Positions 11,196-45,409 of a stretch of 64,000 nt of DNA are shown here, piece by piece (within the stretch, counting starts at the first letter, position 1; each line of letters begins with the position of its first letter). The notes beneath the pieces were generated by a model that was given only the letters and a program-made list of their open reading frames with translations, was not told the origin of the DNA and ran no database searches. The stretch lies in the NCBI GenBank assembly GCA_964615345.1, contig CAZTMR010000002.1, positions 17,428 to 81,427 on the forward strand, read 5' to 3'. A program made the translations under genes and the position numbers. The DNA is from an uncultured Dehalococcoidaceae bacterium. GTDB lineage: Bacteria > Chloroflexota > Dehalococcoidia > Dehalococcoidales > RBG-16-60-22.

Positions 11196-11211
11196 ATTGT
11201 AAAACCCCTTC

Positions 11212-11487
11212 TCTAACAAAAAGTCCCGTCCCAAGGGACGGGAACCAGTCAGCCCGCGGTACCACCCTATTTCCCCGGAGTTCCGGGGCGCTTTTTCCGG
11301 GGCACGCTCCGATGCCCCCGTCAGGATAACGGCTGACGCCGGCCGGGCCTAGTGAGCAGGGTTACCGTCCGCCTGCCGTTCAGCTGGCGACTCGGGAGTG
11401 ATTTTCCGGGAGGCCGGTCACGTCTGCTTCCACTGTCTCAGACTCGCTGGGTGCCAACTATTTCCCGTACTCGTCTCCGTCCACGTC
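11212..11487 (-). promoter_or_regulatory. T-box leader, Ile-specific (predicted), upstream of ileS
   Basis: Minus strand has 'AATAGGGTGGTACCGCGGG' (core = plus 11255-11267), followed by the terminator TCCCGTC/GACGGGA + CTTTTTGTT (plus 11212-11243). Candidate specifier 'GAAA-AUC-A' at plus 11400-11402. Confidence 0.8.
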
Positions 11488-11493
11488 TTTACG

Positions 11494-23579: not shown

Positions 23580-24779
23580 CTAAACCCACCGCGTTCTTTT
23601 ACTGAAACTCTTGGCGGAGGTAAGGGTGGGAATTTTCTCTTCCAGGCAGAGTGCTTCCACCAGCCGCCAGAACTCTTCCCTGTCCGCGCCGGTGACCACT
23701 GCCTGCTCGTGGGCCTCCGCCAGCGCTACCGGGTAGCCCTGTCCGCGCCGACACTGGTCCAGCACCAGCGCGTGGGTCAGGCCGAGCACCTCTTCGTTTT
23801 CCGCCACCCAGCGCGGTACCTCCACGCGGGCAACCTCGTCCCCCGCCCGGAGATAGAAGAACTGCACCTGGTGTTCTCCGTAACGCTCCCGGATGATTCT
23901 GGACGGGCTGATGAACCGGCCGGATCTCTCGCCGTCGGCGAGCAGGTTCGAAAACAGGTCGCGGTCTCTCACTCCGGCCACGACATCGCACTCCCGCTCT
24001 TTCCCCGGCGGGCAGTTACGGTCGCAGTCGGCCGGCTCGTAGGGACAGAGCGCCACCCGCAGCGCGTTGACCACGTCAGTGCTGCGCGGGAAGCTGATAT
24101 AGCTGGCCACGGCCAGTTTCCGATCCCGGTTCAGCCTCCTGATTTCTTCCAGGCAGTCCAGGAAGCCGTCCGTGAGCAGCACTTCGGTGACGAACTCGGG
24201 ATAAGCTTCCAGCCCCCAGAGAATGAGCGAGCCATCAAGCAGCGCCAGACCGGTACTGCCCGGAGGCATGCCGGCAGCGAGCCCGGCGAGACGGCGGCAT
24301 TCCTCGACACCGCGCTTGATGCCCAGCAGCGTGCCTTCCACGGGCTGTTCCCGCCCCCGGCTGGCGGTGGGTGCAATCACCAGATCCACGTCATCGGCGT
24401 ACAGCCGGGGAGAGCTTTCCAGGGCAGCGTCCGGCTCCGCTCCGTAGCGGAGGACGGCCGACCCCACATTTATCAGGTAGCACCGCGCCGAGCGGTGGCG
24501 GTCGACATCGATATGCGAGCCGTCGGCGGCGATGACACTGAATTCATCGGGGACGGGCGGCGCCGGGTGCCGGCTGGCCAGCTTCTCCACAAGTCCGGCT
24601 ACCAGCCAGGTGGTCCGGCTTTCCGCAGCTTTTCTTTGCAGCTTCTCCAGGTCAAGCGCTCCGTCGTTGATGACTTCCATGGCGCTCTGGAGCCGCTTCT
24701 CTCTTTCTTCCCGGTCGTCCCTGAGGCGGGATACCATTCGGCCCACCTGCGGAGCGACCCTGCTCAGGTCCAGTGACAC
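23580..24779 (-). CDS. nurA: NurA-domain nuclease-like protein
   Basis: 'FSVIAADGSHIDVDRH', 'LALLDGSLILWG', 'ASYISFPRSTDVVNALR', 'DLFSNLLADGERSGRF', 'VQFFYLRAGDEVARVEVPRWV', 'GYPVALAEAHEQAVV' follow the bacterial NurA pattern as I recall it. GTG start with an AGAGGAG SD. Confidence 0.75.
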   Translation of the reverse strand: MSLDLSRVAPQVGRMVSRLRDDREEREKRLQSAMEVINDGALDLEKLQRKAAESRTTWLVAGLVEKLASRHPAPPVPDEFSVIAADGSHIDVDRHRSARCYLINVGSAVLRYGAEPDAALESSPRLYADDVDLVIAPTASRGREQPVEGTLLGIKRGVEECRRLAGLAAGMPPGSTGLALLDGSLILWGLEAYPEFVTEVLLTDGFLDCLEEIRRLNRDRKLAVASYISFPRSTDVVNALRVALCPYEPADCDRNCPPGKERECDVVAGVRDRDLFSNLLADGERSGRFISPSRIIRERYGEHQVQFFYLRAGDEVARVEVPRWVAENEEVLGLTHALVLDQCRRGQGYPVALAEAHEQAVVTGADREEFWRLVEALCLEEKIPTLTSAKSFSKRTRWV

Positions 24780-31700: not shown

Positions 31701-32486
31701 ATGGACAGAGAGGTACTGAAAAACCGGGAGAACCGGGTGGCAGAGCTTATCACCGGCGCGGCCAGGGTGGTCTTCTTTACCGGCGCCGGAATCAGCACGG
31801 AATCAGGCATCCCTGATTTCCGCAGCCCCGGCGGTATCTGGGAGCAGCTGGACCCGGAAGACTTCACCTACCAGAAGTTTCTCAGCAGCGCCGAATCACG
31901 GAAAAAACACTGGCGGCTTCTCTGGGGCGGACGCATCGTTGCGGAAGCCCGCCCCAACCCCGCCCACATCGCCATCGCCGAGCTTTACCGCATGGGCAAA
32001 GCAGACTGCGTCATCACCCAGAACGTAGACAACCTGCACCAGCAGGCCGGCGTCCCCGGGGACAGGATATTCGAGCTGCACGGCAATATGCAGTCGGTGG
32101 TATGCCTGAACTGCGGCCGGCGCTTTTCCCTGCCGCGCATCAGGGCCCGGCTGGACAGCGGGGAAGAAACCCCTGACTGCGAGGTCTGCGGCGGCATATT
32201 GAAGCCGGATGTGGTCATGTTCGGCGAGGCGCTGCCGGAAGCGGTGCTCCGGGAAGCCGCCGCCCGCTCCCGCGAGTGTGACCTGTTTATCGTCGTCGGC
32301 TCCACGCTGGTGGTCTATCCGGCCGCCTATCTGCCCGCTTATGCCCTGGACGCGGGCGCCCGGCTGGTCATCATAAACCTCAGCCCCACCCCCTACGACG
32401 ATGACGCCGATGTCCTCATCCCGGCCCGGGCGGGAGAGACGATGAGCGCCATAGCCGAAAAGGTAAAAGCACAAACCGACGGTTGA
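31701..32486 (+). CDS. cobB: NAD-dependent protein deacylase, Sir2 family (CobB-type)
   Basis: 'FFTGAGISTESGIPDFRS', 'VITQNVDNLHQ', Zn ribbon 'CLNCG...CEVCGG', 'VVGSTLVVYPA'. Confidence 0.9.
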   Translation: MDREVLKNRENRVAELITGAARVVFFTGAGISTESGIPDFRSPGGIWEQLDPEDFTYQKFLSSAESRKKHWRLLWGGRIVAEARPNPAHIAIAELYRMGKADCVITQNVDNLHQQAGVPGDRIFELHGNMQSVVCLNCGRRFSLPRIRARLDSGEETPDCEVCGGILKPDVVMFGEALPEAVLREAAARSRECDLFIVVGSTLVVYPAAYLPAYALDAGARLVIINLSPTPYDDDADVLIPARAGETMSAIAEKVKAQTDG

Positions 32487-32557
32487 TTTGCTCCGGTGGT
32501 CTGTTCTATAATTTGACCTGCGTGTGGAAGGGAGCCAGACTCTGGCGCGCGCCAGTA

Positions 32558-33532
32558 ATGAAGCAGATGGGATTAAGCGGTAAAATACTCGCCGGAGACG
32601 TTTCCGCCGCCGCCCGGCTCATCAGCGGCATCGAAGACGAAGCGCCAGAAGCTCTCGCCGAGGTGAGCCAGCTTTATCCCCGGACCGGTAACGCCTACGT
32701 AATCGGCATTACCGGGTCTCCCGGCTCCGGCAAGAGCACGCTCACCGGTAACCTCGTCTCCCACTTCCGGACCAGGGAACTGACCGTGGGCGTGATTGCC
32801 GTGGACCCCACCAGCGCGTTTACCGGCGGGGCGATTCTGGGTGACCGGGTGAGGATGCAGGCACACGGCGCGGATAAGGGGGTTTTCATCCGCAGTCTGG
32901 CCACCCGCGGCTGGGTGGGCGGGCTGGCGCGGGCTACCCTCGGCGTCATCCGGGTAATGGATGCCATGGGCAAGGACATTATCCTGGTGGAAACGGTGGG
33001 TTCCGGACAGATAGAGGTGGATATCACCCGGGCGGCAGACAGCACCATCATCGTCCTGGTGCCGGGCGCCGGTGACGAAATCCAGATGATGAAGGCGGGC
33101 ATCCTGGAAGCCGCCGATATCTTCGTCATCAACAAGGCCGACCGTGGCGGTGCGGACGTAATGAAGACAGACCTGGAGACCATGCTCAAGGCAAAGGCAG
33201 CTTCTCCGGATACCTGGCAGCCGGACATAGTCCTGACCGAAGCCATCTATGACCGGGGTACCGCCGGGCTGGCCGCAGAAATCTTCCGCCACCGTGACTA
33301 CCTGACTTCGAGAGGTGAGCTGACCGCGCGCCGCAGAGCCAGGATTAAACTGGAGCTTATGGAGACGATAGAAGGTTTTCTCAGAGACTATATCCACGAT
33401 ATTGATGCAGGTGATTACCTGGAAAAGCTGGTAGACACTTTGATGGAGAGAAAGACGGACCCCCGCTCCGCCGCCCGGGAAATCACCGGACGCCTGGCCG
33501 GAGACCTGCGCCGCCGGCGCGGCGGCGAATAG
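32558..33532 (+). CDS. meaB: MeaB/ArgK-type G3E GTPase (B12-mutase chaperone)
   Basis: 'GITGSPGSGKSTL' (P-loop), 'VDPTSAFTGGAILGDR', 'ILVETVGSGQ', 'INKADR'. Start set at ATG 32558. Confidence 0.85.
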   Translation: MKQMGLSGKILAGDVSAAARLISGIEDEAPEALAEVSQLYPRTGNAYVIGITGSPGSGKSTLTGNLVSHFRTRELTVGVIAVDPTSAFTGGAILGDRVRMQAHGADKGVFIRSLATRGWVGGLARATLGVIRVMDAMGKDIILVETVGSGQIEVDITRAADSTIIVLVPGAGDEIQMMKAGILEAADIFVINKADRGGADVMKTDLETMLKAKAASPDTWQPDIVLTEAIYDRGTAGLAAEIFRHRDYLTSRGELTARRRARIKLELMETIEGFLRDYIHDIDAGDYLEKLVDTLMERKTDPRSAAREITGRLAGDLRRRRGGE

Positions 33533-33547: not shown

Positions 33548-34693
33548 ATGGACTTCACCTTGAATGAAGAGCAGAAAATGCTGCGGACGATGGTGCGAGA
33601 CTTTGCCGAGAAGGAGCTGGAGCCGATTGCGGCGCAGATAGACGAAGACGCCGCTTTCCCGGCGGAGAGCGTCCGGAAAATGGCGGAGCTCGGCCTGATG
33701 GGTATTCCCTTTCCGGAAGAATACGGCGGCATGGGCAGCGGTATGCTCAGCTTCGCCATCGCCGTGGAGGAAATCGCCCGCGTCTGTGCCTCCACCTCGG
33801 TTATTTACTTGGTCACCGCCGGGCTCGCCGCTCAGCCCATTTACCACTTCGGTAGCGAGGAGCAGAGACGCCGCTTCGTGCCGCCGCTCGCCGGCGGAGA
33901 GAAGCTCTCCTGCTTTGCCCTTACCGAGACCGGCGCCGGCAGTGACCCGGCGGCCATGGAAACCACCGCTACCCGCAAAGACGGCGGCTACCTGCTCAAC
34001 GGCAGCAAGATTTTCATCACCAACGGCGCCGAGGCCGATATCATACTGGTCTTTGCCACCATGGACAAATCACTGCGCCACCGCGGCATCACCGCTTTCG
34101 TCGTGGAGAAAGACAGCCCGGGCTTTTCCGTGGGCAAGCATGAAAACAAGCTGGGGATAAGGGCCTCCTCCACCGTGGAGCTGGTCTTCGAAGACTGCTA
34201 CGTGCCGGAGGAAAACCGCATCGGCAACGAAGGCGACGGCTTCAAAATCGCCCTGAACGCCATCGATGAAAGCAGGGTAATCGTCGCCGCGCAGGCGCTG
34301 GGCATCGCCCAGGCCGCCTACGAGAAGGCACTTGCCTACGCCAGGGAGCGCCAGCAGTTCGGCCAGCCTATCGCCAGTTTCCAGGCCATCCAGTGGATGC
34401 TGGCCGATATGGCCACCCGGATTGACGCCGCCCGCATGCTGACCTACCGCGCCGCCTGCCTCCAGGACAGCGACCAGTTCTTCGTCAAAGAGGCGGCCAT
34501 GGCCAAGGTCTTTGCCGCCGAGACCGCCATGTGGACCGCCACCAGCGCCATCCAGATTTACGGCGGCTACGGTTACAGCAAGGAGTACCCCCTGGAACGC
34601 TACTTCCGCGACGCCAAGATAACCGAAATCTACGAGGGCACTTCCGAGATGCAGCGGCTGACCATCGCCCGCCAGATTATTCGTGAGGGATGA
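33548..34693 (+). CDS. Acyl-CoA dehydrogenase (short/branched-chain type)
   Basis: '[15 protein letters not shown]', '[10 protein letters not shown]', '[34 protein letters not shown]' (catalytic Glu context). Confidence 0.9.
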
Positions 34694-34697
34694 GGAT

Positions 34698-36458
34698 ATG
34701 AACAGCGAAAAGACCACCCGCCAGATCCTGGAAGAAAAGGCCGAACCGGGAGAGCGTATCCCTCTCTACAACCCGGAAGCGCTCAAGAAAATGGCCGGGG
34801 AATTAGAACGCTGGAAAAATAACGTGGTCAGGGAGCAGGACCGCCAGAACTGGACGTCAACTCCCCGTACCATCCTCGGTTCGGAAATCCCGCGGGAACT
34901 GCTCTACACCCCGCTCAATAACGCCGGGCTGGACTACCGGAAGGACCTGGGTTTCTCCGGAGAGGAGCCCTACACCCGCGGCATCCATCCCAATATGTAC
35001 CGTGGCCGCACCTTTACCATGCGCCAGCTCTTCGGCGCCGGCTCCCCGGAGCAGTGCAACCAGCGGATGAGAAACCTGCTGGAACACGGCGCCACCGGCA
35101 CCAACTGGGCGCTGGACCTGGCCACGGTGCAGATGTTTGACTCTGACGAGCCGGAAGCCAGGGGGCAGGTAGCCACGGTGGGGGTTCCCATCGATTGCGT
35201 GGAGGATATGGAGGTAATCTGCCGCGATATCCCCATTGATAAGGTCAGCGCCTCCATCGTCACCCACTACCCGCGGAATACCGCCATCACTTTCCCGATG
35301 TACCTGGTAATGGCGGAGCGCCGCGGCATCCCCTGGGAGCAGCTTGCCGGCAGCGTGCAGAACGATTTTATTATGGAAAGCCTGGTGCGCAGCGCTTCCG
35401 AATATATCCCGCCGCGGGACGACTTCCGCATCCAGTGCGACAACATCGAGTTTATCCGCCGGCACGTACCCAGATGGAACTACGTTACCCTGAACGGCTA
35501 CAACCTGCGGGAATGGGGCACTTCCGGCGTCACCGAGATGGCCGTGGCCTTGGCCAACGGCATCGCCATCCTGGAGGAGATGTCCCGCCGGGGCCACGAC
35601 ATCGACTGGGTGGCGGAGCGGCTGGCTTTCTTCTGGGCGCCGGCCAATGACTTCTTCGAAGAGGTAGCCCGCATCCGGGCGGTGAGAAGGCTGTGGTACA
35701 AGATAATGAAATACCGCTTCGAGGCGAAAAAGCCACGCTCGATGTGGATGCGCTGCCACGTGCAGACCTCCGGCGTCTCCCTGACCCGGGAGGAGCCGAT
35801 GAACAACGTGATACGTGCCGCCTACCACGCCCTGGCCGCCGTGCTCGGCGGGGCGCAGTCCCTGCACGTGGACTCGTACGATGAGGCCTACTCCGTCCCT
35901 TCCGAAGAAGCCTCCCTGCTCTCCCTGCGCACCCAGCAGATAATCGAGGCGGAGACCCAGGTCACCCAGGTGGTCGACCCCCTCGGCGGCTCTTTCTACG
36001 TGGAAGCGCTGACCGAGGAAATCGAAAAAAGAATTCTGGGCGAGGTGGACGAAATCGAGCGGCGGGGCGGCATCGTGGAGGTGGTGGCCAGCGGCTGGCT
36101 GCACCAGAAGGTCGTCCGGCACATAGAGCGCGAGCAGAGAATGATCGAGAGCGGCGAAATCAAGGTGGTGGGACGCAACTACCACCGCGACCCCAACCTG
36201 GAGATGCCCGATGTCCGGGTGCACGAGTACGATGAAAGCATCGCCCGGGAGATGGGGGAGAAACTGGCGAAGCTGAGAGAGCGGCGGGATAACGATAAGG
36301 TAAACCGGAGTCTGGCTGCGCTCAAAGAAGCCTGCCAGCGCGGCGACAACGTCATGGAGTACACCCTGGAATGCGCCCGGGCGGACGCCACCGAGGGCGA
36401 AATGCGCCGGGCCTTTATCGAGGCTTTCGGCTCCTGGAAGCCGCCGATCTACGTTTAG
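34698..36458 (+). CDS. Coenzyme-B12 acyl-CoA mutase, large (substrate/TIM-barrel) subunit; specificity unassigned
   Basis: By eye it aligns with methylmalonyl-CoA mutase: 'FTMRQLFGAG', 'ALDLATVQMFDSD', 'AGSVQNDFIMESLVRS', 'TLNGYNLREWG', 'HVQTSGVSLT', 'SLHVDSYDEA'. It has no fused B12 domain. Confidence 0.85.
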   Translation: MNSEKTTRQILEEKAEPGERIPLYNPEALKKMAGELERWKNNVVREQDRQNWTSTPRTILGSEIPRELLYTPLNNAGLDYRKDLGFSGEEPYTRGIHPNMYRGRTFTMRQLFGAGSPEQCNQRMRNLLEHGATGTNWALDLATVQMFDSDEPEARGQVATVGVPIDCVEDMEVICRDIPIDKVSASIVTHYPRNTAITFPMYLVMAERRGIPWEQLAGSVQNDFIMESLVRSASEYIPPRDDFRIQCDNIEFIRRHVPRWNYVTLNGYNLREWGTSGVTEMAVALANGIAILEEMSRRGHDIDWVAERLAFFWAPANDFFEEVARIRAVRRLWYKIMKYRFEAKKPRSMWMRCHVQTSGVSLTREEPMNNVIRAAYHALAAVLGGAQSLHVDSYDEAYSVPSEEASLLSLRTQQIIEAETQVTQVVDPLGGSFYVEALTEEIEKRILGEVDEIERRGGIVEVVASGWLHQKVVRHIEREQRMIESGEIKVVGRNYHRDPNLEMPDVRVHEYDESIAREMGEKLAKLRERRDNDKVNRSLAALKEACQRGDNVMEYTLECARADATEGEMRRAFIEAFGSWKPPIYV

Positions 36459-36478
36459 AAGCGAGAGGTCAAGACAAA

Positions 36479-36913
36479 ATGGCGCAGAAAAAGAGTAAAG
36501 TAAAGGTGCTCCTGGCCCAGTTCCCCCTGGAAGCGCACAACCGGGGTGTCATCACCGTGGCCGGCATGCTCAAAGATGCCGGTATGGAGGTGGTGCTCAT
36601 CGGCAACGAGTTGCCGGAGCGGATAATCGATTCCGCCATCCAGGAAGACGCGGATGTCATCGGCGTGAGCACCTACTGCGGCGGCGAGCTGGCCCTGGGT
36701 GCCGACCTTATGGCGAGCGCGGAAGAAAAGGGCATCAGGGACAGCGCCGTTTTCCTGCTCGGGGGTATCTTCCCGCCGGGGAACCGGGACAAGCTGAAAA
36801 AACTGGGCTTCAGCGGCGTTTTCCTCTCCGCCGAGCGCGACGAAATAGTCGCCTGCATCGAGGCAGCCCTGACGGAAAAGCGGGCGGCCGCTCAGTCTCC
36901 GGGCGCCTCGTAG
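36479..36913 (+). CDS. Acyl-CoA mutase small subunit (B12-binding Rossmann domain)
   Basis: 'KVLLAQFPLEAHNRGVITVAGMLKDAGMEVVLIG...DADVIGVSTYCGG...VFLLGGIFP' shows the B12-binding fold, with ExHxxG in place of DxHxxG. Start set at ATG 36479. Confidence 0.8.
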   Translation: MAQKKSKVKVLLAQFPLEAHNRGVITVAGMLKDAGMEVVLIGNELPERIIDSAIQEDADVIGVSTYCGGELALGADLMASAEEKGIRDSAVFLLGGIFPPGNRDKLKKLGFSGVFLSAERDEIVACIEAALTEKRAAAQSPGAS

Positions 36914-37329
36914 AGCCGGACCACCGTCTCCCCTTCCACCACCAGCTTACCGTCCTGATTGGCGCAGGTGGTCCTGGCGGTGACGATTCCCTTGTCCTTG
37001 CGCACGCCGATTACCTCGACCGTGGCGGTTACGGTATCCCCTATTTTCACCGGCCGGAGAAACCGGCTGGAATGGGAAAGCAGGATAACCAGACCGGGAA
37101 GCCCGGCGGCGGCCGCCGAGATGAGCGATATGGCGATAACTCCGTGGGCAATTCGCCCGCCGAACGGCGTCTTCCGGGCGAACTCCTCGTCCAGGTGCAC
37201 CGGGTTATGGTCCCCGGAGACTTCAGCAAACTGGCTAATGTCTTTCTCCGTAATCGTCTTGCGGTGCGTGGTGGTATAACCGATGTCCACGCCCAGCCTG
37301 TCCAAGATGGATGGCTCGTTTTCGGTCAC
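36892..37329 (-). CDS. MaoC-like (R)-specific enoyl-CoA hydratase / hot-dog fold
   Basis: 'FAEVSGDHNPVHLDEEFARKTPFGGRIAHGV' (hydratase 2 motif). Confidence 0.85.
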   Translation of the reverse strand: MTENEPSILDRLGVDIGYTTTHRKTITEKDISQFAEVSGDHNPVHLDEEFARKTPFGGRIAHGVIAISLISAAAAGLPGLVILLSHSSRFLRPVKIGDTVTATVEVIGVRKDKGIVTARTTCANQDGKLVVEGETVVRLYEAPGD

Positions 37330-37350: not shown

Positions 37351-38139
37351 TTAATCATCCGGCACTTCCACTGATTCCCCGGCCATAATAGCCGCGCCCA
37401 GGGCGGTAACTATCTGGGGATGGGGCGGCAGCAGCAGCCTGACTCCCAGTCTTTCTTCCACCGCCCGGATAAGCCCGGTGTCCAGGCCACCGCCCCCGCT
37501 CAGGGCGCAGTCAGCCTCCAACCCCACCTTGTCCGCCAGGGCGGAAATCTTGTCCGCCAGCGCCCGGTGCACCCCGGCCAGGATGTCTTCCCGGGCGGCG
37601 CCCTCCGCCACCCGGGAGACGGCTTCCGATTCGCCGAAAACGGCGCAGCCAGTACTGAAGGCGACCGGGCTTTTTGCTTTCAGGGAAAGCGGGCCGATAT
37701 CTTTCAACTCTACCTGGAGAACGTTAGCGATTACTTCCATAAAGCGGCCGCTGCCGGCGGCGCACTTCTCGCTGACGGCAAACCCGGTCACCCGGCCGCT
37801 TCCGCCAACTTTTATCACCTGGCTGGATTGCGCCTGCACGTCGATTACCGTCCGCGCCGAAGGAAAGATGCTGTGGACACCCCGCGCGCAGCAACGGATA
37901 TCAGTGCCTCTTCCGGCCGGGAAAGGGATGTTGCCGGAACCCTGCCCGGTGGCCACCGCCGCAGCGATATCCAGCGCCGACAGCCCCATCTTGTCCAGCA
38001 GTTCTGCGCGCAGTCTGCCGGCGGCCTCTTTATAGTTCACCCCGGAAGGCAGCACGTGGCAGGCCAGGAGTTCCCCGTCCCCGATGACCACCCCCTTGCT
38101 CGTTCTCGAACCGATATCAATGCCCAGGTAATAAGCCAT
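37351..38139 (-). CDS. BcrD/BadG/HgdC-type ATPase (electron-activating subunit), copy 2
   Basis: 'YLGIDIGSRTSKGVV' (ASKHA phosphate 1); cluster-ligand cysteines 'EKCAAGSGRF' and 'STGCAVFGESE'. Confidence 0.85.
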   Translation of the reverse strand: MAYYLGIDIGSRTSKGVVIGDGELLACHVLPSGVNYKEAAGRLRAELLDKMGLSALDIAAAVATGQGSGNIPFPAGRGTDIRCCARGVHSIFPSARTVIDVQAQSSQVIKVGGSGRVTGFAVSEKCAAGSGRFMEVIANVLQVELKDIGPLSLKAKSPVAFSTGCAVFGESEAVSRVAEGAAREDILAGVHRALADKISALADKVGLEADCALSGGGGLDTGLIRAVEERLGVRLLLPPHPQIVTALGAAIMAGESVEVPDD

Positions 38140-38145
38140 TCCGCT

Positions 38146-39039
38146 TCACTCCGGCTGGAAAAAGGTCGCCTCCCCCAGCTCCCGCTCTTTCCTGGCAACC
38201 GTTTCCCCCCTGGCCAGCGCTTTCCGGACAATGTCTTTCCCCATCAGGGCTGCCCCCAGCGCGCCGCTTATCAGCGGGTCTTCCGGCACAAGGACTTCCC
38301 GGCCCAGGTTCTCCCGGACCGCCCTGACCACGCCACTGTTTTTAGCCACCCCGCCGGTAAACACCACCTCCGGCTCCACTTTCAGCTGCCGCAGCATGCC
38401 GACCGCCCGGCTGGCGATGGCGTGGTGCAGTCCGGCCACAATGTCTGCCACCGGAACGCCTTCAGTAAGACGGGCGGTGACTTCTTGCTCGGCAAAGACG
38501 GTGCAGGTATTGCTGATGCTGGCGCGGCGGGTAGATTGCAGAGAGATACTGCCCAGTTCTCCCAGCTCCAGCCCCAGTGTCCGGGCGATGACCTCCAGGA
38601 ACCGTCCGGTCCCGGCGGCGCACTTGTCATTCATCACGAAGTTAACCAGCTTGCCGCCCTGCAGCTTCATCCCTTTGGCGTCCTGCCCGCCGATGTCCAG
38701 CGCCGTCTTCACCCCGGGAAAAAGGCTGGCTATTCCCCGCGCGTGGCAGGTCAGCTCCGTTATCTGGCGGTCGGCAAAGGGCACGCTTATGCGGCCGTAG
38801 CCGGTGGCCACCACGCAAGCGATGTCCGGGAAGGGCAGTCCGGCGAGGGCCAGCGCCTCCTCCATAACCTTATTGGCCAGGCGGCGGTGCTCGGCGCCGG
38901 TATGACTTTCCACGCGGGAGAACACCCGCTCTCCGGCATCAATAATTACCACCTTCGTCATCGTCGAACCGAGGTCGATACCGGCAAAATAGAGTGGCTC
39001 CGCTTTCAATTCAGTCTCTTTCTCTGAAAAAGTTATCAC
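38146..39039 (-). CDS. BcrA/BadF/HgdC-type ATPase (electron-activating subunit), copy 1
   Basis: 'FAGIDLGSTMTKVVI', 'NDKCAAGTGRF', 'SNTCTVFAEQE'; adjacent to a second, clearly different paralogue. Confidence 0.85.
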   Translation of the reverse strand: MITFSEKETELKAEPLYFAGIDLGSTMTKVVIIDAGERVFSRVESHTGAEHRRLANKVMEEALALAGLPFPDIACVVATGYGRISVPFADRQITELTCHARGIASLFPGVKTALDIGGQDAKGMKLQGGKLVNFVMNDKCAAGTGRFLEVIARTLGLELGELGSISLQSTRRASISNTCTVFAEQEVTARLTEGVPVADIVAGLHHAIASRAVGMLRQLKVEPEVVFTGGVAKNSGVVRAVRENLGREVLVPEDPLISGALGAALMGKDIVRKALARGETVARKERELGEATFFQPE

Positions 39040-39073
39040 GCAGTATACCGCAAGGAAAGCTCCAGCCGACCGG

Positions 39074-40237
39074 TCAGCCGATTATCTCCAGGAATGCCTG
39101 CACCCTCGTCCGCAGCTGTGCCAGGGCTGCCTTGCTGTAATCGTGCTCCAGGTAAATGGACGGCAGCCCGATGTTCTCCAGATAGTCCTTCAGCGCCGGC
39201 ACTTCGTAGCCGTGGATATCACAGTAGCGCAGGGCCTGCAAAATCACCCCGTTGACGTTCCAGTCCCGGGCGTAATCACCCAGGTAGCCAAACCGGTTCT
39301 CCAGGTCTGCCTGATAGTCTTTCTTGCCGTCACTGCCGGGGCCGGTATCACGGAACGTCCGCGGGCTGCGCAGCGCCACCAGGTAGCGGTCGGCCAGCCC
39401 GTCCAGCGGGTCGTCGGTAGCTTCCACCAGCGGGAAATAGTCCCGGCTGCCTATGGTGGTATCATCCATGACCACGTTCCCGCCCAGGCTTTCCACCAGG
39501 TCAACCAGCGCCGTGTTATCGATAATGCTTCCCCACGTCATCAGCCGCGCCCCGGCCTGTGCCGGGCCGTCTCTGCGCTCCCTGACTTCAGTGATGACCT
39601 GCTCCAGAAGCCCGTTTGCCTCGGCGGCCGGCAGGCTGGCCACGGCCACCATCACCCGCACCGTTTCCACCCCGGATATCCGCGGCGGGTCAGGCTTCCT
39701 CAGATCGTACAGTTCCCGCACCAGGGAACGCTGCCGGTTATGAGTGTCCACCGCCTGCCGCAGCCTGGCCGCGGTGAGCTCCTGCCCGGTGAGGTTTTCC
39801 AGGGTACGCTTGAAATCTTCCAGCAGCACCCGGTGCTGCTGCCGGGCCGCCCGGTGGGTGGTATGCGGCGTATCAATAAAGTGAGTGTAAGCCGGTTCCA
39901 GGGACATCCGCCAGATATGGGTGGTCTTTTCGCTCACCTCGCAGCCGTGGGCAAAGACCACCCCGTCCAGAAAGTCATACTTTCCTTTCAGCCCCAGGTC
40001 CATGACACTGCGCAGGAAGGGGCAGACCACGGTGGGCAGGCAGGCGTCCGCCCGGGTGATTGTCTCGTTGATATCTCCCAGCAGGCGGTACGGCACCAGG
40101 TCGAGTGCCGTGAGCATTTCTACCACCGGGTAAATGTCCAGGTAGCCGATAACCTTTTTCCCTTCCGCCTTTAGCTCTTCAGCCCGGGCCGCCCGGCGGT
40201 CATAAATCTCTTTTACCCGTTTCAGTCCCGTGGTCAT
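39074..40237 (-). CDS. 2-hydroxyacyl-CoA dehydratase / benzoyl-CoA reductase family catalytic subunit (BcrC/HgdB-like)
   Basis: 387 aa; family-typical N-terminus 'KVIGYLDIYPVVEMLTALDLVPYRL' and conserved Cys 'LPTVVCPFLRS', 'AHGCE', 'LRYCD'. Its start overlaps the upstream subunit's stop. Confidence 0.8.
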   Translation of the reverse strand: MTTGLKRVKEIYDRRAARAEELKAEGKKVIGYLDIYPVVEMLTALDLVPYRLLGDINETITRADACLPTVVCPFLRSVMDLGLKGKYDFLDGVVFAHGCEVSEKTTHIWRMSLEPAYTHFIDTPHTTHRAARQQHRVLLEDFKRTLENLTGQELTAARLRQAVDTHNRQRSLVRELYDLRKPDPPRISGVETVRVMVAVASLPAAEANGLLEQVITEVRERRDGPAQAGARLMTWGSIIDNTALVDLVESLGGNVVMDDTTIGSRDYFPLVEATDDPLDGLADRYLVALRSPRTFRDTGPGSDGKKDYQADLENRFGYLGDYARDWNVNGVILQALRYCDIHGYEVPALKDYLENIGLPSIYLEHDYSKAALAQLRTRVQAFLEIIG

Positions 40238-41586
40238 TACCAGTCGAACCCCGCTTTTTTTCTTACTTCCCGGTAGTGGTTCATCGTCTCCTCGAACGTC
40301 TCCGCCCGGCGCAGGGCGTCCGCCGGGTCGAACAGGTTAAGGTCTACGATGTCCCCTTCCACGACCAGGGAAGGCACCTTAAACTGCTCCATAAGCTGGT
40401 TCTGCACCATCGTCAGGTGGTTGGTGGCGGTGCGGCAGGTGAGCAGCGGGTGCAGCAGTATCCCATCGCATCGGTACTCTCTGACCATTTCAAGATAGGG
40501 ATGGGCGAAATATCCCCACCAGTCCCCGGCCCGGAAAGCATCTTCAAAGTAGCCGGAAAAATACTGGTAGGTCAGCCCGGCGATGCGCTCCAGGGGGTCG
40601 CCGATTCCGCTCAGGTCCACCGGCTTCGGCGGGTGGTAAGCCCAGCTTTCGGTGACGAAGTTCCAGCCCCGCTCCGCAAGCTGGTTGAAAAACTTCAGGC
40701 TGTGCCACGGCGGCAGCTCGGCGAAGGCAAGCCGGAACTTCTCCTCCGGCACCGCCCCGGCGCCACTGTCCACCATTGCCTTCACTTCATCGTACATATC
40801 CCGGTACAGCCCGGCGGTTATCTCCGGGTCGGACGCCATATACAGGGAAGCCGGCATACTGCTCCAGAAGTCCCGCGAGTGCATCGGGCAGGGGCTCGCC
40901 TTGCGCAGCTCGTTCACCTCATACCATACCCGGTTCATCTCGATGGTATCGTCGACGACCTTCCCGAGGCGGTCCCAGTCCATTTTCCGGCCGAGCAGTT
41001 CTTCCAGGAACCGGACGAACTCTTTCAGTTCCGCCACCAGGAAGCGAATGTTATGCTCGCGGTTACCCTCGAGGCGGCTTTCCGGAACGCCGGGATGAGG
41101 CATCTCCAGCACCCAGACCGGCGCATCCAGATAACGTCCCAGCGCCTGGAACCACTTGTAGCGGGTGTCACAGAAATAGCCGGAGCCGAGCAGCAGTGTG
41201 GGCGGGGGCATGCCGCCCATCGGGGCTTCCGGAGGGATTTCCCCCAGCTCCTTCATCCGCGCCGCGTAGCCCAGGCAATTCCGGGCGTAGCCGCACATAT
41301 GAGTGGGGAAACCGTCCGAATCGGAGTAAGCCAGGTAGTCCGGCGCGGCGCCGAAGGCAGCACAGACCGCGCCGTAGTCTTCCGGGTAAATGGCGGCCAC
41401 GTCCATAGCCCGGAGCACGGCGTCACCACCCCACCAGTTGACCATGCACCAGGCCACCGGTTTCCCTTCCCGGCGGGCGGCTACCGCCTGCTGGTACGTC
41501 CCGTCCACCAGCGCCCGCAGCGGATACATCGTTTTCAGCCGGTTGATGGCTCTCCTGCTCTTCTCTTCGGACACGGTATCTACCAT
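40237..41586 (-). CDS. 2-hydroxyacyl-CoA dehydratase / benzoyl-CoA reductase family catalytic subunit (BcrB/HgdA-like)
   Basis: 449 aa; 'GKPVAWCMVNWWGGDAVLRAMDVAAIYPEDY', 'PTHMCGYARN', 'GYFCDT', 'HPLLTCR'. Confidence 0.8.
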   Translation of the reverse strand: MVDTVSEEKSRRAINRLKTMYPLRALVDGTYQQAVAARREGKPVAWCMVNWWGGDAVLRAMDVAAIYPEDYGAVCAAFGAAPDYLAYSDSDGFPTHMCGYARNCLGYAARMKELGEIPPEAPMGGMPPPTLLLGSGYFCDTRYKWFQALGRYLDAPVWVLEMPHPGVPESRLEGNREHNIRFLVAELKEFVRFLEELLGRKMDWDRLGKVVDDTIEMNRVWYEVNELRKASPCPMHSRDFWSSMPASLYMASDPEITAGLYRDMYDEVKAMVDSGAGAVPEEKFRLAFAELPPWHSLKFFNQLAERGWNFVTESWAYHPPKPVDLSGIGDPLERIAGLTYQYFSGYFEDAFRAGDWWGYFAHPYLEMVREYRCDGILLHPLLTCRTATNHLTMVQNQLMEQFKVPSLVVEGDIVDLNLFDPADALRRAETFEETMNHYREVRKKAGFDW

Positions 41587-41664: not shown

Positions 41665-42081
41665 TCAGTCCAGCAAGCGGAAAAGGGGGCGGGCGCTCTC
41701 CCCGGCGGAATAACGGTCACCGGAGAACACTTTGCTGCCGTCTATCTTTACCTTTTTCCCGATGAGCCCCATATCGGCGGCCGCCGGGTCGGTACCCGTA
41801 AGGTTTCCCATCACCCAGGGGCCCTCGTTCATCTCCACCAGCAGAATCACGTAAGGAGCTTCGTCTTCGCGCCCCTCCGCGGCCACATTATTGCTGGTAA
41901 AGGTCTGGATGCGGCCTTCTCCGACAAGCTCGGTTATTTCCATATCGGTCCCGCCGCAGCCGCGGCAGACCATTTTGGGAGGCGTGGTGACCACCCCGCA
42001 CTGGGGACACTTCAGACCCAGCAGCCGGTTTTCTTTGAGTGCCTCGTTATATTCCTTGAAAGTCAGCCTGTATTCCATCAT
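41665..42081 (-). CDS. DUF35 OB-fold / rubredoxin-like zinc-ribbon protein (thiolase partner)
   Basis: 'LLGLKCPQCGVVTTPPKMVCRGCGG' followed by an OB-fold segment; directly downstream of the thiolase. Confidence 0.85.
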   Translation of the reverse strand: MMEYRLTFKEYNEALKENRLLGLKCPQCGVVTTPPKMVCRGCGGTDMEITELVGEGRIQTFTSNNVAAEGREDEAPYVILLVEMNEGPWVMGNLTGTDPAAADMGLIGKKVKIDGSKVFSGDRYSAGESARPLFRLLD

Positions 42082-42111: not shown

Positions 42112-43290
42112 CTACCAGCCGCGCTGCAGAATCATATTCACCAGCGTGCCGCCGTCTCCGCCCAGGGTATCGGTCATGCCAGTCCGGGCGCCTTCCACCA
42201 TCCGTTCCGGCTCCACCTCGCCGCGCAGCTGTTTGGTCACCTCGTAGACCTGTCCGGCCCCGGTGGCGCCGATGGGGTGCCCCTTGGACTTCAGTCCGCC
42301 GGACGCGTTAATGGCTACCTTACCGCCGATTGCCGCCTCGCCTTTCTCCCAGGCCTCGCCCGATTTACCGTATTCGAAGAAGCCGAGCCCTTCGGCGGCA
42401 ATCAGGCTGGCGATACTGAAACAGTCGTGCAGTTCGCAAAAGTCGATGTCCGCCGGCTTCACCCCGGCCATCTCGTAGGCGCGCTGAGCGGACAGCTCCC
42501 GCGCTTTCAGCCGGGGCAGATAGTCACCCTGGCTGACCAGAGGTCCGGAGGAAGCCTGCCCCACCCCGGTGATAAAGACCGGCTTATCAGTCAGCTTGCG
42601 CGCGTTTTCCTCCGTGGTGAGCACCAGAGCGGCCGCGCCATCCGAAAACGGGCAGCAGTCATGGAGCTGGAGCGGCGTGCTCACCATAAACGACTTGAGC
42701 ACCGCCGGCACGTCCACCTCTTTCCGCAGGTGCGCCTTGGGATTGTGCACCCCGTAGCGGTAGGACTGCACGGATACCGCCGCCATCTGTTCCTTGAGCT
42801 TCTCCAGGGGGATGCCGTATTTCGCCGCGTAGAGGTGGGCGAGCATGGCGAACAGGGCGGGAAAGGTAATCCCCGCCGGATACTCATAACGGCTGTCACT
42901 GAACATGGCAAAGGTGCGCGTGGCCAGAGCGGTACCCATGGTAGCCGCCCTTTCCACCCCGCCGGTCAGCACCACATCGTAAAAGCCGGAGGCAACCCAC
43001 ATAAAAGCATCCCGCACCGCCATACTTGCCGAGGCACAGGCGCCCTCGTAACGGTTGGCCGGAACATTGTAGCAGCCGATGTTTTCGGCGGCGAAAGCCT
43101 GCACCATCCCCTGCCCTTCGGAAAAGTCTCCCAGGACGTTGCCCAGGAACAGGGCCTGCATATCTTTCGGTTTCAGGTTGGATCCGCTTATAGCTTCCAT
43201 GGCCGCTTCAGCAAACAGCTCCACGCTGGTCTTTTCCTGGGCCGCCCCGAATTTGGTTTCACCCACGCCGACGACAGCTACTTTTCTCAT
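42112..43290 (-). CDS. Thiolase (SCP-x / BbsB-like, non-acetoacetyl type)
   Basis: 'MRKVAVVGVGETKFG', active-site 'YEGACASASMAV', 'CELHDCFS', 'NASGGLKSKGHPIGATG'. ATG 43290 has a GGAGGAGG SD. Confidence 0.85.
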   Translation of the reverse strand: MRKVAVVGVGETKFGAAQEKTSVELFAEAAMEAISGSNLKPKDMQALFLGNVLGDFSEGQGMVQAFAAENIGCYNVPANRYEGACASASMAVRDAFMWVASGFYDVVLTGGVERAATMGTALATRTFAMFSDSRYEYPAGITFPALFAMLAHLYAAKYGIPLEKLKEQMAAVSVQSYRYGVHNPKAHLRKEVDVPAVLKSFMVSTPLQLHDCCPFSDGAAALVLTTEENARKLTDKPVFITGVGQASSGPLVSQGDYLPRLKARELSAQRAYEMAGVKPADIDFCELHDCFSIASLIAAEGLGFFEYGKSGEAWEKGEAAIGGKVAINASGGLKSKGHPIGATGAGQVYEVTKQLRGEVEPERMVEGARTGMTDTLGGDGGTLVNMILQRGW

Positions 43291-43351
43291 CTGAAATACC
43301 TCCTCCAAAGGTTATTGACCAATACCAAGTTACTATATTCTGCCATTGCCG

Positions 43352-45409
43352 TCAATTTGCCAGCAGCTCGGCGATATCCATCACTTTTACCTTCTCTTCC
43401 ACTTCTTCCAGCTTGAGCCCGTCCTCGAACATCTGCAGGCAGTAGGGACAGGCGGTAGCCACCGTTCCGGCGTTCACCGCCATCGCCTGCTCCGCCCTCA
43501 TTTCGTTAATGCGCCGCCCTCTCTTCTGCTCTTCCAGCCAGAGGTGCCCCCCGCCCGCTCCGCAGCAGAAACCGCGCTCCCGGTTCTTTTCCATCTCCGC
43601 CAGTTTGACACCGGGCATACTGCCCAGCAACCGGCGCGGCGCATCGTAAATATCGTTGTATCGGCCCAGGTAGCAGGAGTCATGGTAGGTCACCACCCCC
43701 CCGGCAATACCTTTTCCGGCTTCCAGCCTGCCCTCCTGCATCAGGTCGGCAATAAACCCGGTGTGATGACTGACCTCGAAGTTCCCGCCGAATTGCGGGT
43801 ACTCGTGCTTCAGGGTGTTGAAACAGTGCGGACAGCCGGTGACAATATTCTTCACGCCGTAGTTCTTAAGCAGGTCAATGTTCGTCTCCGCCTGGATTTG
43901 AAAGAGGTACTCGTTGCCCAGCCGGCGGGCGGGGTCGCCGCAGCAGGTCTCTTCTACACCCAGTATGCCGAAGTTTACCCCCGCCTCCGCCAGCAGCCGG
44001 GCAATCGCCCGTGCCACCCGCGTGCTGCGCTCTTCCAGTGCTTCCGTACAGCCCACCCAGAACAATACATCTACATCACCCGCATCGGCTAAAGTCTTTA
44101 TCTCCAGCCCTTCCGTCCAGTCAGTCCGGGCCAGCGTGGTGCCGCGCCACGGATGCCCCCGCGCCTCGATGCTTTTCAGCGCTCCTTCGCCGGTCTCCGG
44201 AATGGACGCCCGTTCCATCACCAGGCTCCGCCTCATCTCCACTACCTTGGTCATCGGCTCGATGCTCACCGGACAGGCCTGGTGGCAGGCAAAGCAGGCG
44301 GTGCAGTTCCAGATCTCGTCTTCGCCGATTACTTCGCCGGGCAGCGCCCGCTCGGCCGCCTCTCCGTTTCCCCTGAGCAGCGCCGGCGCCCGCTCCAGCC
44401 AGTTCCCTTTCAGGTCCTGAATGATTTTCTTCGGGCTTAAGGGTTTGCCGCTGAGGTAGGCGGGACAGCTGTCCTGGCAGCGCCCGCACCGGGTGCAGGC
44501 GTCCAGGTCAAGCAGGTGCTTCCAGGCAAAGTCTTCAATTCTGGACGCCCCGAAGCTCTCCGCAACCTCCAGGTCGATTGGCACCAGTACTCCCTTCGGC
44601 TCCAGCGATTTGAAATAAACGTTCACCGTGGAGACGATGATATGCCACAGGCGGTTCCAGTACAGGGATACGTAAATAATGGCCCCGATGGAGAGGAGGG
44701 AATGCAGCCACCAGGTAACCCGGTGTCCGGCGAGCAGGCCGGCCTGGCTGAGTCCGCTCAACCCCCGCGCCAGGACGTAGCCGCCGGGCGACCACGGCGC
44801 CCAGCCCGGGTTGGTCTGCAGCTCAGTGGCGGCGATGCGGAAACCCTCCACGATGAATCCGGTAAGCACCACCGTGAAAATGAGCAGCAGGGCCACCAGG
44901 TCCTCGGTCTTACTGTCCAGCCGTTCCGGCCTCTGCCCGTAGCGGCGGTGCACCGCCAGTATCACCGCGATAAGCACCAGGACGCCGAAAACGTCCACCA
45001 CCGCCGAGTAAGCGAGGTAAACTCCGCCTTCCAGGAAGTGAAAGAAGTAATGGCTGACGGCGTCCAGGAAAGAGGCCAGCAAGAATATAATGCATCCGGC
45101 GAAAATCAGGAAATGGATGACACCGGGATAAAACTCCCGGGCGCGCAGGTCTCCGGCGGAAAAGCGCCGGTGGCTCAGGCCGTCAGCGATGCCAACGAAG
45201 CGGCGGTGGGTGAGCAAATCGATGACGCTGACGGCAAAGGCGCGTATTCTCTGCCAGGAGAAGGCGACGCGGCTGTCCGTCCGGCCCACCCGCCACAGCC
45301 TCACGCGCCGGTACAGCGCGTAAACAAAAACGCCGAGAGCGATTACCCCCAGCGCGTAGATGACTTCACCGTACCGGATGTTCCAGAAAATCTCTCGCGA
45401 TGCTTCCAT
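43352..45409 (-). CDS. Membrane-bound Fe-S oxidoreductase: NarI/DsrM-like N-terminal membrane domain fused to an HdrD/DsrK-like (2x[4Fe-4S] + CCG) domain
   Basis: 5-6 N-terminal TM helices with conserved His. Ferredoxin motifs 'CTRCGRCQDSCP' and 'CTACFACHQACP'. CCG motifs 'ETCCGDP' and 'GFCCGAGGG'. Confidence 0.8.
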   Translation of the reverse strand: MEASREIFWNIRYGEVIYALGVIALGVFVYALYRRVRLWRVGRTDSRVAFSWQRIRAFAVSVIDLLTHRRFVGIADGLSHRRFSAGDLRAREFYPGVIHFLIFAGCIIFLLASFLDAVSHYFFHFLEGGVYLAYSAVVDVFGVLVLIAVILAVHRRYGQRPERLDSKTEDLVALLLIFTVVLTGFIVEGFRIAATELQTNPGWAPWSPGGYVLARGLSGLSQAGLLAGHRVTWWLHSLLSIGAIIYVSLYWNRLWHIIVSTVNVYFKSLEPKGVLVPIDLEVAESFGASRIEDFAWKHLLDLDACTRCGRCQDSCPAYLSGKPLSPKKIIQDLKGNWLERAPALLRGNGEAAERALPGEVIGEDEIWNCTACFACHQACPVSIEPMTKVVEMRRSLVMERASIPETGEGALKSIEARGHPWRGTTLARTDWTEGLEIKTLADAGDVDVLFWVGCTEALEERSTRVARAIARLLAEAGVNFGILGVEETCCGDPARRLGNEYLFQIQAETNIDLLKNYGVKNIVTGCPHCFNTLKHEYPQFGGNFEVSHHTGFIADLMQEGRLEAGKGIAGGVVTYHDSCYLGRYNDIYDAPRRLLGSMPGVKLAEMEKNRERGFCCGAGGGHLWLEEQKRGRRINEMRAEQAMAVNAGTVATACPYCLQMFEDGLKLEEVEEKVKVMDIAELLAN

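Follow-up and report, generated by a model that had tools for sequence, protein, structure and literature searches.

Two adjacent genes in a 64,000-nucleotide stretch of DNA from an uncultured Dehalococcoidaceae bacterium (assembly GCA_964615345.1, contig CAZTMR010000002.1, positions 17,428 to 81,427; the whole stretch is called the window here) encode the large subunit and the separate B12-binding small subunit of an acyl-CoA mutase. We think that this enzyme is probably an (R)-3-hydroxybutyryl-CoA/2-hydroxyisobutyryl-CoA mutase of the RCM type, the kind represented by RcmAB of Kyrpidia tusciae and Bacillus massiliosenegalensis, which forms (R)-3-hydroxybutyryl-CoA from 2-hydroxyisobutyryl-CoA (Weichler 2015 and Rohde 2017, as cited in PMC7176365 and PMC11599936). 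The original prediction, made from the letters of the sequence, was of a divergent two-subunit B12 acyl-CoA mutase with unassigned substrate. Its first half holds, as signature residues and NCBIfam cut-offs set the protein apart from methylmalonyl-CoA mutase (MCM), isobutyryl-CoA mutase (ICM) and the HcmA-type 2-hydroxyisobutyryl-CoA mutase (HCM). Its second half does not, as the family includes acetone-induced mutases assigned to 2-hydroxyisobutyryl-CoA, has a sister subclade linked to the 2-hydroxyisobutyrate-CoA ligase gene hcl, and shares an insertion, a spacing and a length with RcmA. The window gene is a new member, from an uncultured lineage, of a known and little-studied kind of mutase; what is left of novelty is the conserved radical enzyme that goes with it, together with the wide spread of the family among subsurface anaerobes.

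One link to 2-hydroxyisobutyryl-CoA comes from acetone metabolism. Acetone and butanone both support growth of Desulfotomaculum arcticum (Desulfotruncus arcticus DSM 17038) and of D. geothermicum (Desulfoscipio geothermicus DSM 3669), and one gene cluster is induced in both organisms (Frey, Kassner and Schink 2021, PMC8084838). This cluster holds an enzyme that depends on thiamine diphosphate (TDP), a protein like 3-hydroxy-3-methylglutaryl-CoA lyase (HMGL) and both B12 mutase subunits, while the proteins induced in D. arcticum also include an enoyl-CoA hydratase, a DUF35 protein, a Xaa-Pro peptidase and a threonine dehydrogenase (PMC8084838). The mutases were assigned to the isomerization of 2-hydroxyisobutyryl-CoA by analogy with an enzyme of D. 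biacutus that is 47% identical (PMC8084838) and is reported to have been verified in vitro (Frey 2018). We find the acetone-induced mutase loci of D. arcticum (L069) and D. geothermicum (L058) among the relatives of the window mutase, with a gene order that matches the published cluster gene for gene and a BLAST identity between the two large subunits of 84.354%, the paper's value being 84.35% (PMC8084838). Both large subunits are 62-63% identical to that of the window, carry the same Leu/Arg/Asn signature within a shared His75/Asn77/Leu89/Arg207/Asn244/Asp366 pattern, and are paired with a Glu-type B12 motif (ETHNRG). The surroundings are shared as well: MaoC, the two HGD-D subunits resembling benzoyl-CoA reductase (BCR), two ATPases, thiolase and DUF35 of the window correspond gene by gene to L069 and L058, and in D. 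arcticum acetone also induces the MaoC orthologue, which bears the annotation '3-hydroxybutyryl-CoA dehydratase 04029' (PMC8084838). Unlike these two clusters, the window has no TDP-dependent enzyme, HMGL-like protein or other acetone-activation candidate.

A second link is a ligase. Rohwerder and co-workers gave the D. biacutus mutase the name 'RcmAB-like', and hcl-rcmAB/hcmAB-meaH clusters with a GntR regulator have been described, the natural source of 2-hydroxyisobutyrate being an open question (PMC7176365). In the sister subclade (21 loci, with an Asp-type B12 motif), the gene after the small subunit encodes a ligase of 467-481 amino acids (aa), and the mutases keep Arg207 and Asn244; the large subunits of L064 and L050, the two that were measured, are 62-65% identical to the window's. 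The L064 ligase scores 553 bits against the 2-hydroxyisobutyryl-CoA synthetase 6HDW versus 235 bits against phenylacetate-CoA ligases (PaaK), and a GntR-FCD regulator lies upstream, which agrees with the hcl-rcmAB organization (PMC7176365). The window operon has meaB, though no hcl, and no GntR gene lies beside its mutase; it is the sister subclade that carries the hcl orthologue, with the GntR regulator in L064. As a side observation on D. biacutus, the locus tag DebiaDRAFT_04574 is in conflict between PMC7176365 and PMC4103992, standing for a TDP-dependent lyase candidate in the one and for the mutase N-terminal subunit in the other; the TDP enzyme is 04566 in the genome paper's list.

A third link is RcmA itself. 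The residues named for RcmA of B. massiliosenegalensis are V92, I95, E102, V122, E137, P163, V172, H174, Y252 and F296 (PMC11599936 supplement). Shifted by +16 throughout, the corresponding residues of the window protein are M, L, E, A, E, P, V, H, Y and F, so that seven of the ten are identical and the differences are Met for Val92, Leu for Ile95 and Ala for Val122. The Val-x-His of RcmA falls in an insertion that, among 150 superfamily representatives, is confined to the window family; the spacing between the equivalents of Tyr89 and Tyr243 is 157 in RcmA and the family and 154 in MCM and HCM; and the 569 aa of RcmA plus the offset of 16 come close to the 586 of the window protein. In addition, both systems have two subunits with a MeaB/MeaH chaperone. 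Where HcmA has Asp117, RcmA has Val and the window protein Ala. A place inside a characterized mutase clade would count against the original prediction, and through L058 and L069, the hcl-linked subclade and these RcmA features the protein has, in substance, such a place.

The active-site residues were located by phmmer against PDB chains and in a MAFFT alignment of 174 sequences, which gave the same pairings (the PDB chain index equals the literature numbering -1 for 1REQ and +11 for 4R3U; positions are in MCM numbering unless they are those of the window protein). The three by-eye calls of the original prediction are right, and its alignment was not shifted. TMRQLFGAG aligns to TIRQYAGFS, so that Tyr89 becomes Leu111 (nucleotides 35028-35030); NGYNLREWG aligns to SGYHMQEAG, so that His244 becomes Asn269 (35502-35504); and ESLVRSASEY aligns to EFMVRNTYIY, so that Arg207 is retained as Arg231 (35388-35390). 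In the MAFFT alignment, other changes near the active site are Tyr75His, Thr77Asn, Ala90Phe, Phe92Ala, Ser114Asn, Val115Trp, Phe117Leu, Ala248Trp, Trp334Val and Asn366Asp. All of the CoA- and adenosyl(cobalamin)-contact residues examined are retained (Arg82, Arg87, Gln197, Tyr243, Arg283, His328, Gln330 and Glu370).

Membership of the superfamily is clear from PF01642 (541.5 bits), PF02310 (61.4 bits) and PF03308 (279 bits), and from TIGR00641 and TIGR00640, both over cut-off, while the signatures of the characterized classes do not fit. Like MCM (P. shermanii 1REQ, human 2XIJ; 36-37% identity), the window enzyme has the fold, the CoA- and adenosyl-contact residues, Arg207, Gln197, Tyr243 and a MeaB partner; unlike MCM, it has Leu/Arg/Asn in place of Tyr89/Arg207/His244, and it scores 445 against a cut-off of 876 for the NCBIfam MCM equivalog NF006944. 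At the positions of the ICM/IcmF signature (Phe89, Gln207; IcmF is marked by a fused GTPase as well) the window protein has Leu and Arg, with 199 against a cut-off of 1500 for NF045497, and the FAQH clusters sit elsewhere in the tree than the window mutase family. HcmAB of Aquincola tertiaricarbonis, which is (S)-specific, has split subunits too, and its structure 4R3U is the best solved relative of both window subunits by full-chain score, the small subunit's match to 2YXB excepted (large subunit 394 bits, 39% identity). HcmA differs, however, in having Ile90, Asp117, Gln208 (4R3U numbering) and His where the window protein has Leu111, Ala138, Arg231 and Asn269, and in having no family insertion; its partner HcmB carries the motif DGHDRG. 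The position of HcmA Asp117, Ala138 in the window, is Leu, Ile or Val in the other subclades.

On this basis, an adenosylcobalamin-dependent RcmAB-type mutase, helped by the MeaB chaperone encoded upstream, would move the CoA-thioester group reversibly between C2 and the methyl carbon and so interconvert 2-hydroxyisobutyryl-CoA and (R)-3-hydroxybutyryl-CoA. Leu111, Arg231 and Asn269 are the usual active-site residues of the family. RcmA is said, in work by Weichler in 2015, to have Val in place of the hydroxyl-binding Asp117 of HcmA. In this family, polar contact with the hydroxyl of the substrate, made by Asp117 in HcmA, may have passed to the side of Arg207 and Asn244, a shift with which the opposite (R) stereochemistry would agree. 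The neighboring MaoC, thiolase/DUF35 and acyl-CoA dehydrogenase (ACAD) would connect 3-hydroxybutyryl-CoA with crotonyl-CoA, acetoacetyl-CoA and acetyl-CoA. They are enzymes of short-chain C4 type and fit C4 chemistry: MaoC is an (R)-hydratase, the ACAD is Bcd/AcrC-like and the thiolase is of the acetoacetyl-CoA type.

Several points weigh against an RCM-type assignment of the window's own enzyme. The link to RcmA is indirect, drawn from ten residues, one spacing and one length, and a profile search with L052, L067 and L079 matched proteins from metagenome-assembled genomes (MAGs) only, with no RcmA or D. biacutus sequence among them. The Desulfotomaculum assignment is itself an analogy to an enzyme 47% identical. 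Arg at 207 is otherwise typical of carboxylate-binding mutases. The 64-kb window has no hcl, no TDP-dependent lyase or other TDP-dependent enzyme, and no HMGL-like gene, so that no source of 2-hydroxyisobutyryl-CoA is seen there. Finally, six positions close to the active site (90, 92, 115-117 and 248) set the window subclade apart from the subclades linked to acetone and to the ligase: the window has Phe112, Ala114, Trp137, Ala138, Leu139 and Trp273 and the others have Thr/Val, Phe, Val/Ile/Leu, Leu, Phe and Phe.

These six substitutions raise the alternative that the window subclade belongs to the same RCM-type family and has shifted to a related substrate. This might be a 2-hydroxy-2-methylacyl-CoA of greater length, for instance the 2-hydroxy-2-methylbutyryl-CoA that ketones of the butanone type would give, or some other branched acyl-CoA that is small and polar. 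The Desulfotomaculum cluster is butanone-induced as well (PMC8084838), and subclades that have no dehydratase-like genes carry yet other residues at 115-117, namely Cys-Ile-Leu (L001, L032) and Cys-Ile-Phe (L013). We nevertheless regard such a shift as rather unlikely: the window's neighborhood of MaoC, two HGD-D subunits, two ATPases, DUF35 and thiolase is that of the acetone-induced cluster, the first-shell residues Leu89, Arg207, Tyr243, Asn244 and Gln197 are unchanged, and the substitutions resemble compensating swaps of aromatic and small residues.

The retained Arg had led the original prediction to suggest a carboxylated substrate. In such an enzyme, acting on an alkyl- or aryl-succinyl/malonyl-CoA in the manner of IaaGH or alkylsuccinyl-CoA mutase, Arg231 would bind the carboxylate and Leu111 would make room. 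Arg207 is indeed kept in 84 of 84 family members, and among the 150 superfamily representatives it occurs mostly in MCM-type proteins with Tyr89 and His244. Genes of Bbs type (short-chain dehydrogenase/reductase (SDR), enoyl-CoA hydratase, thiolase with DUF35, ACAD) together with a BCR-like enzyme would also fit an arylsuccinate-type beta-oxidation. The Arg is nonetheless no evidence for a carboxylate, because the same Arg/Asn signature occurs in the hcl-linked and acetone-induced enzymes, whose linked substrate is a non-carboxylated 2-hydroxyacyl-CoA. In addition, no iaa-type neighbors (CoA-transferase IaaL, hydantoinase-like IaaCE, GGG-type ACAD) were found in the window or the annotated flanks of related loci, no glycyl-radical genes occur among the annotated neighboring genes, and the ACAD, the thiolase and the hydratase all have the look of enzymes for short C4 chains. 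We consider a carboxylated substrate improbable. The IaaGH-like candidate, prompted by Arg207, PaaK-like ligases and the BCR-like genes, was rejected specifically because the ACAD has YEG and not GGG, iaa-type neighbors are missing and the 'PaaK-like' ligase is an HCL orthologue. For propionate dismutation via a C6 intermediate as in Smithella, whose enzymes are still unknown (PMC8892533, PMC13248872), we found no specific link, and hypotheses of a glutaryl-CoA/methylsuccinyl-CoA, a 2-methyl-3-oxoacyl-CoA/4-oxoacyl-CoA or a lactoyl-CoA/3-hydroxypropionyl-CoA mutase gave way to the evidence from acetone induction and from HCL.

The family that shares the residue pattern of the window mutase is large. 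Leu/Ile89, Arg207 and Asn244, and with them His75, Asn77 and Asp366, are common to all 84 related genome and metagenome loci (55-89% identity), so that by these alignments the pattern is far from chance and represents fixed family traits. Identity to the 120 nearest protein clusters is 78-100%; those named by organism come from Chloroflexota or Dehalococcoidales MAGs, and the sole function name among them is 'methylmalonyl-CoA mutase'. When 1.84 billion proteins are represented at 50% identity, the top match is 57% identical (732 bits) and the next full-length one 41% (462 bits); over the full length the family is at most ~44% identical to other mutase clusters. With each GTDB species represented by one genome, 80 loci (58-89% identity) turned up in Dehalococcoidia, Syntrophales, Thermodesulfobacteriota, Desulfobacteraceae, Bathyarchaeia, Actinomycetota and Bacillota, with three cultured hosts: Desulfoscipio geothermicus DSM 3669, Desulfotruncus arcticus DSM 17038 and Desulfotomaculum copahuensis. 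In neighbor-joining trees of 160 sequences, the family was monophyletic in 45 of 45 bootstraps, with the MCM and HCM references outside; P0130 was its sister group in 6 of the 45 only.

Such conservation bears on a further alternative, in which the window protein would be a paralogue that is inactive in catalysis or serves regulation, as the beta subunit of MCM does, and that lost Tyr89, His244 and the Asp of the B12 motif by decay. Two residues important for MCM catalysis are in fact replaced. We give this possibility almost no credence, given the 78-100% identity over 120 clusters, the retention of every CoA- and cobalamin-contact residue that was checked, the presence of its own B12 subunit and MeaB, and the abundance and induction of orthologues in proteomes.

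Beyond the family, the 150 superfamily representatives comprise 52 with the MCM signature, 11 with that of ICM, two with that of HcmA and ~70 with other combinations. These ~70 of the 150 nearest 50%-identity clusters (P0121-P0270) have non-canonical residues at 89, 116, 207 and 244, and His244 is often replaced by Asn, Gln, Cys, Val or Asp. Judged from such residues, non-canonical acyl-CoA mutases are common in general and form a large uncharacterized diversity. One groundwater Chloroflexi MAG (L015, 1-2166) has a second, distant pair of large and small mutase genes directly upstream of MeaB-ACAD-mutase.

The small subunit carries the base-off/His-on B12 motif D-x-H-x-x-G with His and Gly kept and Asp replaced by Glu. 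The original prediction of a separate B12 domain with this replacement is borne out by the alignment of LEAHNRG to the LDGHDRG of 2YXB and 4R3U_C; its length of 145 aa is corrected to 144, since the start is the ATG at 36479 and not 36476, in agreement with database protein P0271. The closest solved matches are 2YXB (76.2 bits) and then HcmB (4R3U, 73.7 bits). Of the 120 closest small subunits, 119 have E-x-H-x-x-G (EAHNRG in the window, nucleotides 36530-36547), the exception reading ESHSRA, while the Thermodesulfobacteriota and Actinomycetota subclades of the family keep Asp (DVHNRG). The prediction had set the Glu against the canonical Asp, and no Glu was seen in the B12 domains of the displayed PDB alignments; yet it is shared with the acetone-induced enzymes and swaps with Asp in the family. 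Since Glu and Asp alternate within one family and Glu is present in enzymes expressed in growing cultures, the Glu is a lineage variant, with no sign of new chemistry; the abundance of Glu-type enzymes in cells growing on acetone makes it compatible with function. Mechanistically, it would stand for the Asp that hydrogen-bonds the cobalt-ligating His.

The genes around the mutase are listed in Table 1. As originally stated, meaB and the ACAD gene belong to the mutase operon, both lying directly upstream on the same strand. For meaB the mechanical reading frame begins at 32483, and we prefer the start at 32555, the orthologues in relatives having 325 aa. The ACAD has the motif IYEGTSE, not the GGG of IaaF, and its best NCBIfam model is the acryloyl-CoA reductase AcrC (511 bits, under the cut-off of 640). 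For the thiolase, which comes closest to acetoacetyl-CoA thiolases of archaea, the best PDB matches are the acetoacetyl-CoA thiolases 7YVY (242 bits) and 6ESQ (238 bits), with BbsB at 183. The small-subunit and MaoC genes are convergent, and their 3' ends overlap by 22 nucleotides (36892-36913).

Table 1. Genes of the mutase locus, with positions in the window, strand and supporting matches
Gene product	Position	Strand	Support
SIR2/CobB-type NAD-dependent protein deacylase, first gene of the + operon	31701..32486	+	Pfam SIR2 172.8 bits, NCBIfam CobB models
MeaB/MeaH-type G-protein chaperone	32555..33532	+	Pfam MeaB 279 bits; TIGR00750 315.9 > cut-off 240.75
Short-chain acyl-CoA dehydrogenase/enoyl-CoA reductase, YEG catalytic motif	33548..34693	+	three ACAD Pfam domains
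Mutase large subunit, RcmA-like, 586 aa	34698..36458	+	PF01642 541.5 bits; key residues Leu111, His190, Arg231, Asn269
B12-binding small subunit, RcmB-like, 144 aa	36479..36913	+	PF02310 61.4 bits, TIGR00640 73.7 bits
MaoC-type (R)-specific enoyl-CoA hydratase, last gene of the convergent operon	36892..37329	-	PF01575 89 bits
BcrAD/BadFG-family electron-activating ATPase, subunit 1	37351..38139	-	PF01869 147.7, TIGR00241 198.9 bits
BcrAD/BadFG-family electron-activating ATPase, subunit 2	38146..39039	-	PF01869 217.6, TIGR00241 262.7 bits
BzdN/HadC-like subunit, BCR/2-hydroxyacyl-CoA dehydratase family	39074..40237	-	PF06050 256 bits
BzdO/HadB-like catalytic subunit	40237..41586	-	PF06050 170.8 bits
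DUF35 protein (zinc ribbon + OB fold), thiolase partner	41665..42081	-	PF12172, PF01796
SCP-x/archaeal-type thiolase, probably acetoacetyl-CoA thiolase	42112..43308	-	thiolase Pfam domains
Membrane Fe-S oxidoreductase, two CCG domains, HdrD/GlpC-like	43352..45409	-	PF02754, 4Fe-4S dicluster domains

Two HGD-D subunits, MaoC and thiolase with DUF35 accompany the mutase in different phyla and in three gene orders, usually together with two BcrAD-type ATPases; SDR or 3-hydroxyacyl-CoA dehydrogenase, crotonase or ACAD genes are variable extras. This linkage of the mutase to the HGD-D, MaoC and thiolase-DUF35 set extends to the most divergent member, P0121. Some Dehalococcoidia (L001, L032) have a minimal cluster of SIR2, MeaB, mutase and DUF35-thiolase only. 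The CCG Fe-S oxidoreductase gene lies at the same place in L006, L008, L010, L012 and L027, and its product probably passes electrons from ACAD and electron-transfer flavoprotein to the membrane. No TDP-dependent (acetolactate-synthase-like) enzyme or HMGL-like protein was found by phmmer within 10 kb in the other loci searched, and the 64-kb window has no cobalamin riboswitch. In Actinomycetota (L072, L073, L081, L083, L084), the mutase genes have a phosphate acetyl/butyryl-transferase gene for a neighbor, which adjoins MeaB in L081, L083 and L084; this suggests substrate-level phosphorylation from the product acyl-CoA. SIR2/CobB opens the MeaB-mutase operon in many Dehalococcoidia (L001, L002, L005, L008, L010, L013, L018, L027, L030). 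CobB is a lysine de-2-hydroxyisobutyrylase, and its co-encoding would fit a cluster that handles 2-hydroxyisobutyryl-CoA.

A conserved companion of the mutase in these loci is the partner enzyme (37351-41586 in the window), which, like class I BCR BzdNOPQ and the dehydratases HadBC and HgdAB, has two HGD-D subunits, BcrAD-type ATPases, the catalytic Cys triad, Glu65 and Trp46. There are two ATPase genes as in BCR. Unlike these systems, it has Arg for His131 and low similarity to any characterized member (74-168 bits). The BzdN-like subunit matches BzdN best (8S02_B, 168 bits; HadC 112 bits), and the BzdO-like subunit matches MbdO (86.6 bits), HadB (84.7 bits) and BzdO (73.8 bits) and retains the equivalents of Cys95, Cys128, Cys380, Glu65 and Trp46. 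BzdN holds an [8Fe-9S] double cubane by six cysteines, and dehydratase beta subunits keep one cluster only (Fuchs et al. 2025, PMC11971306). All six cysteines (C-C-C-C-C-C) are present in 27 of 35 mutase-linked BzdN-like orthologues (the loci compared include L003, L011 and L021-L038). The window subunit has three of the six (D-C-C-T-S-C) and so falls short of the six of a class I BCR; the loss, which makes it HadC-like, is common to the window copy and its four nearest relatives. From this distribution, it looks like a recent change from a cofactor set resembling that of BCR and double-cubane cluster proteins to a dehydratase-like one. A benzoate-type pathway was rejected, as there is no Dch, Had and Oah set and the window BzdN-like subunit has no double cubane.

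For this ATP-dependent member of the 2-hydroxyacyl-CoA dehydratase/BCR family, the most likely substrate is the other mutase product, 2-hydroxyisobutyryl-CoA. Two HGD-D genes lie between the small-subunit gene and hcl in L041, L042 and L070, and in L045 two HGD-D and two ATPase genes follow the small-subunit gene, the contig ending ahead of any hcl. We infer the partner substrate from these operons, since 2-hydroxyisobutyryl-CoA is the sole 2-hydroxyacyl-CoA in those with HGD-D genes between rcmB and hcl. The most parsimonious reaction would be dehydration to methacrylyl-CoA, or a reductive dehydroxylation, followed by ACAD. The radical enzyme would then hydrate or dehydrate a tertiary 2-hydroxyacyl-CoA, making this the 2-methyl homologue of the lactoyl-CoA/acryloyl-CoA pathway.

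From these parts we tentatively propose an undescribed anaerobic route, possible rather than probable as yet, from isobutyryl-CoA via methacrylyl-CoA, 2-hydroxyisobutyryl-CoA, (R)-3-hydroxybutyryl-CoA and acetoacetyl-CoA to two acetyl-CoA, with all steps reversible. It would pair the RCM-type mutase with the ATP-dependent dehydratase/BCR family enzyme, and the Bcd/AcrC-like ACAD, the (R)-hydratase and thiolase/DUF35 would complete it. If true, this would make 2-hydroxyisobutyrate a natural part of the way in which Dehalococcoidia, Syntrophales and Bathyarchaeia of the subsurface metabolize valine and isobutyrate. The route would also explain the acetone-induced 'benzoyl-CoA reductase' proteins, whose role was stated as unknown (PMC8084838). 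The genomes with partner-enzyme genes between rcmB and hcl make the conversion of 2-hydroxyisobutyryl-CoA to methacrylyl-CoA directly testable.

The extent of the family also has consequences for annotation. Of the genes labeled 'methylmalonyl-CoA mutase' in MAGs of Dehalococcoidia, Syntrophales, Thermodesulfobacteriota, Bathyarchaeia and Actinomycetota, thousands belong to it, and such annotations should not count as evidence for a methylmalonyl-CoA (propionate) pathway. Its enzymes linked to a hydroxy-acyl substrate have Arg at the 'carboxylate' position and Asn for the general-acid His, so the rule of thumb of Tyr/Phe/Ile plus Arg/Gln fails for this family.

Elsewhere in the window, a T-box leader (RF00230, 95.2 bits, 11231-11492, minus strand) lies upstream of the gene for a class I aminoacyl-tRNA synthetase of 1048 aa (8088-11234). 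A HerA-like helicase (21078-22688) and a NurA nuclease (23580-24779), both on the minus strand, are encoded near each other, a pairing known mostly from archaea and from some bacteria.

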